This document shows, in pieces, positions 32,545 through 44,286 of a DNA stretch of 64,000 bases. Source of the DNA: Thermodesulfobacteriota bacterium. Its GTDB lineage: Bacteria; Desulfobacterota_D; UBA1144; Nemesobacterales; Mycalebacteriaceae. The notes beneath the pieces are model-generated. The model saw only the letters and a list, made by a program, of their open reading frames with translations, was not told where the DNA came from and did not search any database. The stretch covers positions 704,001 to 768,000 of the forward strand of contig OZ245366.1 in NCBI GenBank assembly GCA_965226585.1, read 5' to 3'. Each line of letters begins with the position of its first letter. The first letter of the stretch is position 1. The position numbers and the translations under genes were made by a program.

Positions 32545-33026
32545 GTATGAAAGAGCCGGATTTTAAGAATAAGGAGCACTGGCTTCGCAAACAGCATGAG
32601 GTGGTCAACTACCGCCGCAGTTCCATGTATCGCCTCATCATTGAGATGTCGCGCGGTTTGCTTCTTGGAAACGCGGGCGGGCTTGCCACATTGATAGGGA
32701 TAATGTCGTCATCGCAGAGAGTTTCCGAGACCGGGTTTTTCCATTGGATTGCGATAATTACTTCGGTGATGTTTCTCATAGGGCTTTGTTTTTCGTTTGC
32801 CACTTTGATACTTGTAACGTCTGTTTCCGTAAGGGAGGCGCATTCCGCCGAGACCGCGATGAAGAAGTTTTCAGACGGTGATTTTACGAGGGAGCAGATG
32901 CTTTTCTATGTTGAAGACCGAACCCGCAGTATTGCCTCCTCCGCCACAATTTGCGGGATTTTAAGCATAGTTATGATGGGGATTGGAATAGGGCTGGGGC
33001 TTGTGCAGTTGGCTTATTATTTTTAG
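32541..33026 (+). CDS. Hypothetical 3-TM membrane protein
   Basis: ATGA-coupled to upstream gene; three hydrophobic segments. Confidence 0.6.
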   Translation: MSMKEPDFKNKEHWLRKQHEVVNYRRSSMYRLIIEMSRGLLLGNAGGLATLIGIMSSSQRVSETGFFHWIAIITSVMFLIGLCFSFATLILVTSVSVREAHSAETAMKKFSDGDFTREQMLFYVEDRTRSIASSATICGILSIVMMGIGIGLGLVQLAYYF

Positions 33027-33045
33027 TAGGGTGGGGTTGTTAGAG

Positions 33046-34092
33046 ATGTTTTCTAAATTGCAGAAGGCAGTTATTGCCCTTGTTTTCCTTTTTGTGGTTG
33101 TTGTGGGTGCTTTTGTATTTTTTGGGAAATCACACCTATCTGTGGGAGCGTGGTTTGGCTCGGGAGCTACTTATGCAAAACAGCACGATTATTCCGAAGA
33201 GGTAGAGTCATACCGTAAGGCTTTGCAGACAAACCCTGAGAATGTGGAAGTGTGGAATAACTTGGGAGTTGCTTATGGTGAGCAGGGGAAGTATTCCGAA
33301 GCGGTGGAGTCATTTCACGAGGCTTTGAGAATCAATCCTGAATATGTGGAAGCGTGGAATAATTTGGGGCTTGCTTATGGGAAGCAGGGGAAGTATTCCG
33401 AAGAGGTAGAGTCATATCGCAAGGCTTTACAAATTAATCCTGAGAATGCAGAAGCGTGGAATAATTTGGGGCTTGCTTATGATGAGCAGGGGAAGTATTC
33501 CAAAGCGGTAGAGTCGTATCGCAAGGCTGTACGGATTAATCCTGAGTATGCGAGAGCGTGGGCTGGCTTGGGAGTTGTTTATGCGGAGCAGGGGAAGTAT
33601 TCCGAAGCGGTGGAGTCATTTCGCAAGTCTTTGCGAATCAATCCTGAGTATGCGAAGGCATGGAATAATTTGGGAGTTGTTTATGGGAAGCAGAGGAAGT
33701 ATTTCAAAGCGATAGAGTCATATCGTAAGGCTATAAGGATTAATCCTGAGTATGTGGAAGCGTGGGTTGCATTAGGATTTGTTTATGGGATGCAGGGAAA
33801 ATATTCTGAAGCGATAGAATCATACCGTGAATCTTTGCGAATCAATCCTGAGAATGCGGAAGCATGGGCTGGCTTGGGAGTTGTTTATTTGAAACAAGGG
33901 AAGTATTCCGAAGCGATCAAATCATTTCGCAAATCTTTGCGAATCAATCCTGGGTTTGTGGAAGCGTGGACTGGCTTGGCATTTTCTTATAAGGTAAACG
34001 GTCAGGACAGTCAGGCAGTAGAAGCGTATCGGGAAGTAGAAAAGTTTAACCCTGACCTTGCGCGAGATATAAAAAGCGAGATTTTTGATTGA
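33046..34092 (+). CDS. Membrane-anchored tetratricopeptide repeat protein
   Basis: About 8 near-identical 34-aa repeats (EAWNNLG..Y..QGKYSEA..S.RKAL.INPE); N-terminal TM helix. Confidence 0.92.
   Translation: MFSKLQKAVIALVFLFVVVVGAFVFFGKSHLSVGAWFGSGATYAKQHDYSEEVESYRKALQTNPENVEVWNNLGVAYGEQGKYSEAVESFHEALRINPEYVEAWNNLGLAYGKQGKYSEEVESYRKALQINPENAEAWNNLGLAYDEQGKYSKAVESYRKAVRINPEYARAWAGLGVVYAEQGKYSEAVESFRKSLRINPEYAKAWNNLGVVYGKQRKYFKAIESYRKAIRINPEYVEAWVALGFVYGMQGKYSEAIESYRESLRINPENAEAWAGLGVVYLKQGKYSEAIKSFRKSLRINPGFVEAWTGLAFSYKVNGQDSQAVEAYREVEKFNPDLARDIKSEIFD
33190..33985 (+). repeat. 102-bp tandem repeat encoding the TPR units (8 copies)
   Basis: TATTCCGAAG-like anchor at 33190, 33292, 33394, 33496, 33598, 33700, 33802, 33904. 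Confidence 0.9.
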
Positions 34093-34125
34093 GTAGGGTG
34101 GGATAGGGCTAGGTATTTGGTGTAT

Positions 34126-34806
34126 TTACCTTTCCTTTTTCGTTTGGTCGCAGAATTCAATTGCCTTTTGTATTTTTCTTACTGCATTTCTTACCTTGTT
34201 TATTTCTCTTTCTAATTCATCGACTCTGTGACTACAACACCATCTATATTGTTTGCCACTTCCACAAGGGCATTGATTCTTTCTTTTTGCATACTTAATT
34301 TGTGTTTTTTGTTTTTGAAGGTGCTCTATGTTTTCTTCGTGATACTTCTTTGCTTCTTCCAAACCTGCTTTTCCGTGTGAGTAGCCTTTCCACGGCTCTT
34401 TTCCGTGTATTCTTTTATAAGATTGCCAGAATAAGATATGCAGGATTTTATCTTGGATGTATTTAGAGGTTGAAACCCATTCGTATTGTGGGAATACACC
34501 TAAGCACAACTTCCCGTCAATACTTGTGTGAAACTCGTCTTCCCTTGGAATTTTTTTACCTGTTTCATATACGCTCGGAAAATTGAATATGTCTGGTTTG
34601 TTAAAATTTATTTCAATTTCATAAGAGTCCGAAATCGACTCATCATTTTTAACATCTAACCTAACTTTTCTTTCGCGTGGGAAGTACACGCAATCATGAA
34701 ATTCAACAGTTCCCCAAACCCTCTTCTTTCTGGTCTCACAATTCAGACTGGGGAACGTCTTTTGAAGTTCTCTTTTATCTGAATTTGTTAGTTTGACGAT
34801 AACCAC
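34126..34806 (-). CDS. CBASS-associated E2 (ubiquitin-conjugating)-like protein with C-terminal SEC-C motif
   Basis: FHTSIDGKLCLG resembles the E2 catalytic H...G..CL motif; PWKGYSHG; CPCGSGKQYRWCC. Confidence 0.7.
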   Translation of the reverse strand: MVIVKLTNSDKRELQKTFPSLNCETRKKRVWGTVEFHDCVYFPRERKVRLDVKNDESISDSYEIEINFNKPDIFNFPSVYETGKKIPREDEFHTSIDGKLCLGVFPQYEWVSTSKYIQDKILHILFWQSYKRIHGKEPWKGYSHGKAGLEEAKKYHEENIEHLQKQKTQIKYAKRKNQCPCGSGKQYRWCCSHRVDELEREINKVRNAVRKIQKAIEFCDQTKKER

Positions 34807-35777
34807 GGTCTCTCAACACCGACTTCAATATGTGATCTATTTCTATTAGTGCCATTATCATCGCTATCCGCCTCTTTCCCAAGAGGAAATCTCTCCCCGA
34901 AAACTTTTCTCCAATACTCGGAAGATTCTTTTTCGCATTCAGAATCAATAGCACCTCTAGCATTATCAGCCAGTTTCTTTATCTCTTCCATAACCTTTTT
35001 CTCGTTATACTTCTCTAGAAGGTCTTCATCAGTCGGGGTTGTTGGTCTGCAGCAAGTAAAGTTCAACTCTAGAGCACTCTTTATTCTATCAATGGTTTGC
35101 TTCAGCGACAGGTCATCTCTATCATCTTCAGAGAGATTATTACAGGCAAGTATGGTTAGAATGAAACCCGATGGCAGTTTCAAACTTGAATTTTCACTCT
35201 CTCTGTAGTCCTTCCATGCCTTGAGGTACCTTATAATCCTTCTCAATTGCCCTTCGTTATTCGTGTCAGATATTTTTTCTTCTACCCAAACACGGAAACC
35301 TTGAGGGTCGCTTTCTATAAAACCGTCGGCTTTGTGCGCTAACCGGGGCGTATCATCATCTTTTTCTATCCAATACATAGGCAAGTCTATATGGTGCCCG
35401 TCCGCATAAATTACGCGGATGCATGTGTTTTTATCCTGATGGCTCTCCGCATGCCCATCTACCGCCTTCCCAATCCTATCATGATAAGTGATGACCTCTT
35501 TCCGTTCTTCTTTTGGATAAGTGAAATAGACACCATCATCCAAGTCATACTTCTCTTTGATTGAACCGTCATCTTGTTCTTTGGGAATCGGGTTAAGGTT
35601 AGTTTGAAGAGAGAAAGAACCCTGAGAATGAAAACTGGGTAATTCCCATTTCTTTTCTTTAAAGTGTCCTTTTATTTTATCTCTTAGGGCATTTCTGTTG
35701 GTTTTGAGTTTTTCCCTTTTCGAATCTGACAATCTTATTTTAGAGTCAAATGTCGTGAAAAGTTTGTTTGTGTTCAT
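34788..35777 (-). CDS. cGAS/DncV-like nucleotidyltransferase (CD-NTase, SMODS + AGS-C)
   Basis: SQGSF, YDLDDG, HHIDLPMY, SDP, QLRRIIRYLKAWKD, LPSG, WRKVFGERFP; AAGGAGG RBS; ATGA overlap with effector. Confidence 0.9.
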   Translation of the reverse strand: MNTNKLFTTFDSKIRLSDSKREKLKTNRNALRDKIKGHFKEKKWELPSFHSQGSFSLQTNLNPIPKEQDDGSIKEKYDLDDGVYFTYPKEERKEVITYHDRIGKAVDGHAESHQDKNTCIRVIYADGHHIDLPMYWIEKDDDTPRLAHKADGFIESDPQGFRVWVEEKISDTNNEGQLRRIIRYLKAWKDYRESENSSLKLPSGFILTILACNNLSEDDRDDLSLKQTIDRIKSALELNFTCCRPTTPTDEDLLEKYNEKKVMEEIKKLADNARGAIDSECEKESSEYWRKVFGERFPLGKEADSDDNGTNRNRSHIEVGVERPWLSSN

Positions 35778-36373
35778 TTTGAACCTCCTTGTTTTGAAAC
35801 TTTCATGCAACCCTTGGTTTGCGGGTCGCGATTAGTAAAATAGTAGCCTTCCAAGCGTATTGATTCTCCTTTTTCAATAATATCCAGAACACTCATGCCA
35901 TCATGTGCGTTTAAAGTATCTCCATTTTTGCACGACCCTCTGTTGTGGTAGTAGAAATGCAACTTGGAATTTTCAACCTCATCGGTTGTGACAAATGCTT
36001 CCGTACTCTCTGACCGAGTTTCATTTTCTCCTTCTTCATCAGCAAATACTGAGACAATTTTTATGTGGGAGCAGGTTTGTGTAATTGATAAAGTGCAAAG
36101 TTTGGAACGGTTTTTCCCTTCCCAAAAAGACTCTATTTCTCCGCCATACTCGCCGCTAATGTTCGGGACTGTATTTATCCAATTCATTAGTGGTAATTTC
36201 CACAGCCACTTGTCATAAGAGACAATGATAAGCATAACGATTGTTAAAGGTCCTACCCCTTGTAAGATTTCGTACTCCCATAGATTTTCAAAAAATCCTA
36301 ATGATATGTACCAACACACCACGACAAGCGGTAGTAAGTATCTCGGTTTGTAGTACCTCAGATTTATTTTCAT
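35774..36373 (-). CDS. SMODS-associating 2TM beta-strand-rich effector (Cap15-like)
   Basis: Two TM helices, YDKWLWK, PNISGEYGGEIES, ITQT, SES, YYHN, HDG, LEGYYFTNR. Confidence 0.85.
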   Translation of the reverse strand: MKINLRYYKPRYLLPLVVVCWYISLGFFENLWEYEILQGVGPLTIVMLIIVSYDKWLWKLPLMNWINTVPNISGEYGGEIESFWEGKNRSKLCTLSITQTCSHIKIVSVFADEEGENETRSESTEAFVTTDEVENSKLHFYYHNRGSCKNGDTLNAHDGMSVLDIIEKGESIRLEGYYFTNRDPQTKGCMKVSKQGGSK

Positions 36374-36410
36374 AAATCTATATCCCCCTTCCTTCTCAAT
36401 CTCCCCATGG

Positions 36411-36545
36411 TCACAAGCCTTTGCGCCCAATAACATTCAGGATTTGGAGCCACTCAATCCCGACAACCCCATCATATGGCATGAGGATATTTCGGTCAAT
36501 ACCATATGTTGATTTTTGCGTGGTGTTTGATGTTTCTATCTCCAT
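36411..36545 (-). CDS. Possible 44-aa ORF or gene remnant between ATPase and effector
   Basis: MEIETSNTTQKSTYGIDRNILMPYDGVVGIEWLQILNVIGRKGL preceded by AAGGTGG. Confidence 0.3.
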   Translation of the reverse strand: MEIETSNTTQKSTYGIDRNILMPYDGVVGIEWLQILNVIGRKGL

Positions 36546-36557
36546 CACACCACCTTA

Positions 36558-37772
36558 CTACTCATCCCTTTCCTTCTGCCTCAAGATATATTCCCCCAGA
36601 AGCGGGATGGCGAAAGAATACTTGCCGTGTCGGTTCTTAAAAACAAGTCCCTTATCAGCCAATGTAACCAGCATTTGATTTACATGACTGTTACTGAACG
36701 GACTGCCCGAAATAGCTTTCGACTGCTCAACCACTTCTTGAACTGTGAACTCCCCGTCTCTGCGCTTCAACGAAGCAATCGCAAACATAAGGTCACGTTG
36801 GCGATCCGTAGCGCGTGCCCAACGTCCGGCAAAAAAGTCGGCGTCCAGTCTTTGCTCAATTTTCTCGGCGGGAACGAATGCCTTTTCCCCTTTGTCCGAA
36901 AGTTGGATGAACAAATCAAATACTTCCTTGCATATAAACTGTATGAAATATGGATAGCCGCCCGACATTTTAACAATGGTGTTCACCGATTCTGGTGTTA
37001 GCACTATGGGGCTTTCAGAGTTTTCAATTGGCTTTGTTATAGCTTTTCTGCTGTCTTCATCCTTAAGTTTTTCCAGTTCAACCACATGGAACATACGTTC
37101 GGCGAAAGTGCGGGAGTCCACCAGTTTCGGGAATAGTGTCGGCAATCCCGTCAATACCAGCATTAACGGCAAGTTTTTCCGCTGCAGAGACTGGAATGTG
37201 TCAAGCAATAAAGCCATGGGAAACTGCTCTTTTTCCTGATGGTCTGCGAGGTTCTGGGCTTCATCGTAGGCGAATATAATACCGCGAATATTAGAGTCCA
37301 TATGTGAAATTACGCTCCACGACAACTCCAGGACAGCTTTAATCTTATCAAGTGCCAGTCCCGGAGTTTTTTCATACACGTTAATCAAAGCTTGGTAATC
37401 AAGCGTTTGGTGTTGAATTTCCTCCTTGCTGTCAAAGCCGATAGTAGTATGTCGCACAGACTCTACTGAGATGGACGAAGTTATTGAGGACAGGTCGGCA
37501 ATGAGACGTTTCACTAAATTGTCTTCGTTTATACTGGTGGATTCGCTGAGGTCCGTGCCAACCCAGAGCCACTCGCTTTCTATGGCGAGGGGCTTTAAAG
37601 TTTCAAGCAGGACGGTTTTCCCGACACCCCGCAAGCCCGTCAAAACCATGTTTTTCAAAATGATTTCTTGCTTGAGAAGATCTTTGAATTCGTTTTTTTC
37701 TTCCTCTCTTCCCGCAAGATAGGGCGGCTGATGTCCGGCTCCCGGCTTGAAAGGGTTGATCATTTTCTCCAT
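36558..37772 (-). CDS. AAA_16-type ATPase with C-terminal winged helix
   Basis: NPFKPGAG.QPPYLAGRE, GLRGVGKT Walker A, YDEAQ Walker B, GGYPYFIQ, L.DKGLV..RHGKY.F; AGGAGG RBS. Confidence 0.85.
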   Translation of the reverse strand: MEKMINPFKPGAGHQPPYLAGREEEKNEFKDLLKQEIILKNMVLTGLRGVGKTVLLETLKPLAIESEWLWVGTDLSESTSINEDNLVKRLIADLSSITSSISVESVRHTTIGFDSKEEIQHQTLDYQALINVYEKTPGLALDKIKAVLELSWSVISHMDSNIRGIIFAYDEAQNLADHQEKEQFPMALLLDTFQSLQRKNLPLMLVLTGLPTLFPKLVDSRTFAERMFHVVELEKLKDEDSRKAITKPIENSESPIVLTPESVNTIVKMSGGYPYFIQFICKEVFDLFIQLSDKGEKAFVPAEKIEQRLDADFFAGRWARATDRQRDLMFAIASLKRRDGEFTVQEVVEQSKAISGSPFSNSHVNQMLVTLADKGLVFKNRHGKYSFAIPLLGEYILRQKERDE

Positions 37773-37805
37773 TTTTCAGCACCTCCTTTATAGATTAACA
37801 ACGCA

Positions 37806-37839
37806 GACTAAATATAGTGTTGTATCTACTTTTAGTCAA
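37806..37839 (-). promoter_or_regulatory. Sigma70 promoter of the ATPase-CBASS unit with overlapping inverted-repeat operator
   Basis: Minus strand TTGACT(37839-37834)-17 nt-TATATT(37816-37811); IR GACTAAA(37806-37812)/TTTAGTC(37831-37837). Confidence 0.7.
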
Positions 37840-38759: not shown

Positions 38760-38969
38760 ATGCAGTTAACAGCAGTCATAACCCCCGCCGATGAAGGCGG
38801 TTTTATAGCGATAAACCCTGAAACCGGAACCCATACACAAGGAGAATCCGTTGAAGAGGCATTGTCAAACCTTCAGGAAGCGACCGAGTTGTATCTGGAA
38901 GAGTTTCCGCTGAAATATCGCGGCAAATCTCTTATGACGACTTTTGAAGTTCAGGCGAATGTCTCCTAA
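38760..38969 (+). CDS. hicB: HicB family antitoxin (short form)
   Basis: TQGESVEEALSNLQEA.ELYLE. Confidence 0.88.
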   Translation: MQLTAVITPADEGGFIAINPETGTHTQGESVEEALSNLQEATELYLEEFPLKYRGKSLMTTFEVQANVS

Positions 38970-39186
38970 ACTCCCCCATCTTTCCGGAAAAGAAATTGTA
39001 AAGACCCTTGAAGATTTGGGCTTTGTTGTTGCCCGAAGAAAGGGCAGTCATATAGTCTTGCGCCGCGGCTCACGCGGTTGTGTTATTCCAAATCACAAGG
39101 AAGTTAAAACCGGAACGCTTGCCGGTCTGTTAAGGCAGGCAGGCGTTGATAATGAGGACTTTCTGAAAGCGAGAAAGAAAGGGTAA
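38959..39186 (+). CDS. hicA: HicA family toxin
   Basis: GF...RRKGSH, VIPNHKEVK.GTL. Confidence 0.9.
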   Translation: MSPKLPHLSGKEIVKTLEDLGFVVARRKGSHIVLRRGSRGCVIPNHKEVKTGTLAGLLRQAGVDNEDFLKARKKG

Positions 39187-41171: not shown

Positions 41172-44196
<3,025 letters not shown>

Positions 44197-44286
44197 CGAG
44201 GCTTGAAACCACTTGAAAAGATGGACGTTGTTTCTTATTCGTATTAGTTATGTGTTTGGGTTGTTGTTTTTTACGAGTGAAAGAAC

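Follow-up and report, generated by a model that had tools for sequence, protein, structure and literature searches.

Systems for cyclic oligonucleotide-based antiphage signaling (CBASS) are built around a nucleotidyltransferase of the cGAS/DncV-like kind (CD-NTase) and an effector. In the E2-CBASS exemplified by Serratia marcescens CdnG-E2, the cyclase is accompanied by a membrane effector and a stand-alone E2 protein with a conserved catalytic cysteine, and E1 and JAB are absent (excerpts of 10.1101/2022.05.25.493364 and PMC12948482). This class is termed E2-only or 'type II short' in excerpts of PMC11153139, and a survey of E2-CBASS counted 406 cyclases, 74% of them from clade G (PMC12948482, excerpts). 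Described CBASS regulators such as CapW, CapH+CapP or CapK+CapS place a DNA-binding protein upstream of the system with an operator on the promoter, and for capK+capS, excerpts of PMC13373217 report 348 of 443 cases in which the pair precedes an immune operon. Here we describe a CBASS that lies behind a gene for an ATPase with a winged helix-turn-helix (wHTH), at positions 34126-37839 of a 64,000-nt stretch (the window) of a Thermodesulfobacteriota bacterium of the Mycalebacteriaceae (GCA_965226585.1, contig OZ245366.1, 704,001-768,000, forward strand; genome G000, 1.48 Mb). A first-pass annotation of this DNA had proposed that the ATPase regulates or senses for CBASS. The analysis presented here indicates that the locus very probably consists of two independent modules side by side, an E2-only CBASS and a solitary, apparently self-regulating ATPase-wHTH.

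The genes run on the minus strand in the order proposed by the first-pass annotation, and all named open reading frames (ORFs) were located: the ATPase-wHTH (36558-37772, 404 aa), a 44-aa ORF (36411-36545), the Cap15-type effector (35774-36373, 199 aa counted from the ATG common to orthologues), the CD-NTase (34788-35777, 329 aa) and an E2-like protein with a C-terminal SEC-C motif (34126-34806, 226 aa), after which a convergent TPR gene follows. The last three genes overlap as claimed, by 4 nt (ATGA) between effector and CD-NTase and by 19 nt between CD-NTase and E2. The description of the whole run as low in GC holds for the CBASS genes (36-40%) but not for the ATPase gene (46%), the genome value being 51.6%. 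No Rfam family was found between window positions 33000 and 41171.

The CBASS identity proposed earlier was confirmed by profile matches for all three proteins, and it is from these profiles that membership was assigned. The effector is a Cap15 (PF18153, E 5e-19, above cut-off; PADLOC two-transmembrane (2TM) effector model, E 9e-34), with two transmembrane helices and a β-barrel nucleotide receptor, and its orthologues are about 50% identical. The CD-NTase scores 224.9 bits against NF041078, the NCBIfam CBASS cyclic GMP-AMP (cGAMP) synthase model (cut-off 150). Its closest solved structure is 7ljo (E 1.5e-40, residues 4-303), a likeness that concerns the cyclase alone and comes from sequence comparison, and the catalytic motifs QGS and DLD are intact and aligned with those of 7ljo. 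The latter is Bacteroides fragilis CdnB (BfCdnB), a clade B04 enzyme whose product is mainly 3'3'-cGAMP (excerpts of PMC10442399). The third protein matches PADLOC E2 models (E 1e-27); H93, C101 and the SEC-C cysteines are invariant across 13 homologues, and the core pair of cyclase and overlapping effector is joined by a stand-alone E2 with its catalytic cysteine (C101). Neither an E1 nor a JAB gene is present in the operon. Judged by these matches, the trio falls into an established CBASS class ('type II short', or E2-only) and adds a further member to it. It shares its general composition with the Serratia E2-CBASS, as excerpted, but differs in its clade-B-like rather than clade G cyclase, in its Cap15 rather than 2TM-SAVED effector, in the SEC-C motif of its E2 and in the lack of an exonuclease. 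No description of a CBASS E2 with SEC-C was found in the literature searched, supplements lying outside the search. Some cyclase homologues are fused to the E2/SEC-C protein.

The association of the ATPase with CBASS was surveyed at 162 loci of ATPase homologues: 79 from genomes, chosen as the best of 244 confirmed, 80 from metagenomes, chosen as the best of 275 confirmed, and three from relatives. Together they span 1.69 Mb, and merging those 90% identical leaves 116. A tblastn search of the 162 loci with the window cyclase, Cap15 and E2 revealed no CBASS gene, apart from one 33-residue SEC-C match, and a hidden Markov model of 122 cyclases, strongest for clades A and B, detected no CD-NTase in them. 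Broader profile libraries likewise show no CBASS domain in the nearest neighbour on either side (100 downstream, 103 upstream); most of these neighbours have unrelated housekeeping functions, and a few are transposases or belong to toxin-antitoxin systems. Twenty of the 103 co-oriented downstream proteins, from 53 loci, match a PADLOC model, none of them for a cyclase, effector or E2. Across the 116 loci the next gene is co-oriented in 53, opposed in 47 and absent in 16, and no conserved two-gene partner was found.

The two parts are also distributed independently. Among 120 genomes of the same phylum, in which kin are not independent, the ATPase (E ≤1e-60) occurs in 12 and the cyclase family (E ≤1e-20) in five, and only the window genome holds both. 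The same Cap15-cyclase-E2 trio is found among other neighbours in three genomes (G036, G066 and G076; 61% cyclase identity), with an MqsA-like gene region upstream in G066 and IetAS in G076; the G036 contig ends 267 bp upstream. Viral contigs yielded no cyclase relative, and the three plasmid cyclase relatives considered out of 207 records (36-44%) lie among different genes, with no ATPase of this kind annotated. In G066, two CBASS systems face each other (L185:7725-14472), one of the Cap15/E2 type and one of the patatin-phospholipase type; in the former, cap15 seems to have a frameshifted or truncated start.

[quoted passage not shown] The proposal that it regulates or senses for CBASS is not supported, given this count and the independent distributions. 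The first-pass annotation had itself named a lack of enrichment beside CBASS or other defence genes as grounds for abandoning the idea, and this is largely what was observed. Because the ATPase shows no CBASS link in other genomes, the supposed CBASS regulator is most likely a mere neighbour.

The operator, by comparison, travels with the ATPase gene. The claimed sigma-70-like promoter, TTGACT-17-TATATT, is present before the gene (37839-37811, minus strand, 10/12 consensus match), although such matches are not above chance here (7 found, 10.9 expected). The sequence GACTAAA-N18-TTTAGTC (37806-37837) occurs once in the window and in 0 of 100 shuffles. When the 128-nt intergenic stretch was shuffled 2000 times, a 7-bp inverted repeat of one sort or another appeared 293 times. 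The letters of this one site would not suffice to establish it; promoter and operator are regarded as real because they are conserved. The 7-bp inverted repeat reported on the -35 and -10 elements does exist, but it is part of a larger arrangement: two 14-bp palindromes stand in tandem (boxes 37837-37824 and 37819-37806), and the repeat consists of their outer 7 bp. Box 1, GACTAAAAGTAGAT (37824-37837), is an imperfect palindrome over the -35 element with a matrix score of 9.0, and box 2, CACTATATTTAGTC (37806-37819), lies over the -10 element, 18 bp from box 1, with a score of 14.8, the best of any single box in the 1.48-Mb genome.

The family operator has the consensus GACTAAATTTAGTC, a 14-bp palindrome whose boxes are paired 18 bp apart. 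Within three mismatches, it is found in 73 of 112 upstream regions of ATPase homologues. The corresponding control counts are 1 for 107 downstream regions, 3 for 846 regions upstream of other genes and 12 for 2240 shuffles. The 18-bp spacing occurs in 34 upstream regions, and every other spacing in at most three. The operator matrix was trained on the same 112 upstream regions, with the window, the viral copy and the further phylum loci held out; a pair score of at least 10 is reached by 98 of the 112 regions and by 1 of 846 control genes. The held-out window site has a pair score of 23.8, the best in the genome, the next independent site scoring 12.9 at 19-bp spacing. The held-out viral copy (one protein at two ATPase loci in viral contigs, operator present) and eight of nine further phylum copies score 17.5-45.6, and both promoter and operator are kept in the ATPase copy of a sister species (G004). 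The suggested survey for a conserved GACTAAA-N18-TTTAGTC site found conservation with the ATPase, in the form of tandem palindromes, but no link to CBASS, and no operator box precedes cap15. On this comparative evidence, the operator is to be assigned to the ATPase and not to CBASS. The conserved operator overlaps the gene's own promoter, as in an autorepressor, and since it is conserved upstream of the homologues, self-repression is likely; the ATPase probably binds the palindromes at its own promoter. The autorepressor part of the original proposal is accordingly retained as probable. The palindrome is absent from the four loci of an ATPase clade at 28% identity (L172-L175), whose upstream regions contain their own runs of short AT-rich direct repeats, a candidate for a different operator matched to a different winged helix.

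The ATPase matches AAA_16 with an E of 2.4e-7, and its Pfam scores lie just below cut-off. Across 52 aligned homologues, neither Walker A (G46-T53) nor Walker B (D170-E171) varies. The predicted structure (predicted local distance difference test, pLDDT, 86.6) is best matched by 2qen (Z 22.5), 2fna (Z 21.4), 1w5s (Z 20.0) and 2qby (Z 19.3), and according to this model the protein has an Orc1/Cdc6-fold AAA+ core, a lid and a C-terminal winged helix, the features of the Orc1/Cdc6-type ATPase-wHTH group (PF01637/AAA_16-like). These elements are common to archaeal PAB2304 (2qen), SSO1545 (2fna) and Orc1/Cdc6 (1w5s, 2qby, 2v1u), with an alignment spanning the full length of the ATPase (Z 19-22.5, root-mean-square deviation 4.2-7.0, 323-340 aligned residues). 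In contrast to these proteins, to which it is 13-18% identical, the window ATPase is bacterial and solitary, has tandem palindromes at its own promoter and shows no sign of a replication role. Neither the ATPase sequence nor its profile found a PDB entry below E 0.006, and an Atlas search returned unnamed AAA_16 clusters only. The family comprises at least 7983 clusters, counted among 8000 candidates of which the best 120 are at least 62% identical, and is spread over more than ten phyla. Three soil loci have a small YukD/ubiquitin-like gene upstream of the ATPase in divergent orientation (L105:3012-3368, L107:4038-4328 and L138:228-506).

Type III CBASS also places an AAA+ ATPase, the TRIP13-like protein, beside a CD-NTase, in a system with HORMA. 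The window ATPase belongs to a different fold group, and none of the six proteins scanned with PADLOC matched a TRIP13 or HORMA model; the earlier statement that it is not TRIP13-like and lacks a HORMA partner is correct, and type III CBASS was rejected. In the literature searched, which included excerpts of PMC12839542 and PMC11381338, no description of a self-regulating ATPase family of this kind was found, nor of an ATPase-wHTH regulator of CBASS; operon tables in supplements outside this search may list such loci.

The gap between the ATPase and cap15 measures 184 nt and contains a second promoter-like site, TTGACC-17-TATGAT (36499-36471), which was omitted from the first-pass annotation and, with a 10/12 match, equals the ATPase promoter. 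It is accompanied by a 13-bp imperfect inverted repeat (arms 36470-36482 and 36499-36511), the two forming a candidate CBASS promoter on the minus strand at 36470-36511. Neither the site nor the repeat is conserved before three orthologous cap15 genes, and the gap DNA beyond the ATPase end was not found in 119 other phylum genomes. A separate promoter for the effector, which had been named as evidence against a CBASS role of the ATPase, is largely in view as a candidate seen in the sequence, and it is probably from there that CBASS is transcribed. The 44-aa ORF has a ribosome-binding-like site and is probably non-coding or a remnant. It was rejected as a real gene: it has no Pfam match, and a search among 1.84 billion representatives returned only itself and four repeat-inflated chance matches, with no credible homologue.

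The DNA behind the ATPase stop codon is a variable, swappable defence slot. In run X4, from a close relative and represented by one 48-kb contig with 99% identical flanks, the ATPase is kept and 33027-36558, the segment with the TPR gene and CBASS, is replaced by 3788 other letters, the exchange beginning with the stop codon of the ATPase. For a 2907-nt contig of X6, alignment begins at 36559 and leaves the first 952 letters of the contig unaligned. The ATPase of the sister species G004 is 81% identical, and homology ends 14 bases past its stop codon; behind it lie opposed genes that have no Pfam or PADLOC matches and are not this CBASS. In another sister species, G001 (L187:5526-11992), the same slot, between the TPR and DUF547 genes, holds a type III restriction-modification system, which contains a split RmrA-like gene (HTH + M78 peptidase) and a DUF4411 gene. 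Because the 3' half of the ATPase gene differs more from X4 (85 of 740 positions) than the flank does (13 of 1027), the comparison suggests cassette exchange by recombination anchored in the ATPase.

Several observations weigh against the reading as two independent modules. Since 72 of the 116 non-redundant loci have at least 2.5 kb of downstream sequence and the family counts at least 7983 clusters, a rare CBASS-linked subgroup could be missed, and about 9 of the 53 co-oriented downstream runs were classed as defence- or toxin-antitoxin-like (our own classing, with no background control). Because the 3' half of the gene diverges from X4, part of the ATPase may have arrived with CBASS. [quoted passage not shown] The ATPase does stand first in the run with a wHTH and an operator, but its homologues have no CBASS beside them, far from the frequency reported for capK+capS, both parts are distributed independently, the orthologous CBASS loci lack the ATPase, and cap15 has no operator box.

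Local co-option, in which the pairing is recent and read-through from the self-repressed ATPase promoter sets CBASS expression in this strain, perhaps with the same control over any cassette landing in the slot, is unlikely. Read-through into CBASS is possible because the genes are co-oriented across the short gap before cap15, in which no terminator-like site was found; the slot starts exactly at the ATPase stop codon, and a sister genome has defence genes in it. This is offset by the second promoter-like site in the gap, by the opposite strand of the G004 genes behind the ATPase and by the near balance of next-gene orientations in the family. It is also very unlikely that the palindromes serve an unrelated host regulator or a mobility signal instead of being an autoregulatory operator. 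Binding of the ATPase to the palindromes is predicted from sequence, and the exact tandem operator was matched once in viral contigs, on 3.8 kb of sequence without an ATPase, but the motif travels with the ATPase gene through more than ten phyla, overlaps the promoter, changes with the protein clade and has no comparable second site in the window genome.

Within the two-module reading, the mechanistic steps of CBASS are drawn from characterized relatives. Upon phage infection, the clade-B-like cyclase would make a cyclic dinucleotide (its likeness to BfCdnB makes 3'3'-cGAMP the probable product), which Cap15 would bind, oligomerizing and disrupting the inner membrane, and the E2/SEC-C protein may tune the cyclase via the cyclase C-terminal tail. 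In the excerpted Serratia study, linkage of the cyclase to E2 requires a tail glycine, and Leu or Val in its place abolished linkage (10.1101/2022.05.25.493364). The window cyclase ends in RPWLSSN (34788-34830), a P-W-x-S tail with no glycine or alanine at or beside the C-terminus, in contrast to the glycine used by Serratia CdnG and to the Gly/Ala that serves conjugation in described type II CBASS. Among 101 stand-alone cyclase homologues of 310-345 aa (of 120 listed), for which the tail register is uncertain, 89 have a P[WYF] tail, followed by glycine in 4 of the 89, and 5 of the 101 end in glycine or alanine. The clade-B-like subfamily is possibly a non-conjugating E2-CBASS variant, and its E2 may act differently because the tail glycine of the published mechanism is missing.

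Orc1 proteins bind origin boxes. By its fold, the ATPase would use its winged helices to bind both 14-bp palindromes at the -35 and -10 elements and so repress its own transcription, with its nucleotide state gating operator binding, while CBASS would have arrived behind it by cassette exchange and would use the promoter-like site in the gap. The role of the ATPase may be a single-gene accessory stress or anti-invader function, which we hold at slightly under even likelihood; that it is a near-neutral or selfish passenger is a more tentative suggestion. Elsewhere in the window, a HicB/HicA toxin-antitoxin pair (38760-39186) is deleted in X4, partly deleted in X5 and X6, and present in G004. 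The 23S rRNA gene (41172-44197) directly follows a protein gene, and a 16S primer motif is found on the other strand at a distance of about 395 kb (C1, about 1140096), so the rRNA genes appear unlinked.

These results remove a false lead, since nothing in them points to a new CBASS regulator. A distinctly unlikely proposal is that the ATPase is a portable nucleotide-gated switch, in which a stress or infection signal releases self-repression and read-through induces any defence cassette exchanged into the place behind the stop codon, CBASS in this case. If true, it would represent a new kind of regulator, a plug-in whose position and not whose partner defines it, and would show how bacteria control newly acquired suicide systems without a dedicated regulator. 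Independently of this, an ATPase family of such size and phylogenetic spread, uncharacterized in the literature searched, has a sharp operator that makes its self-repression and ligand control testable.

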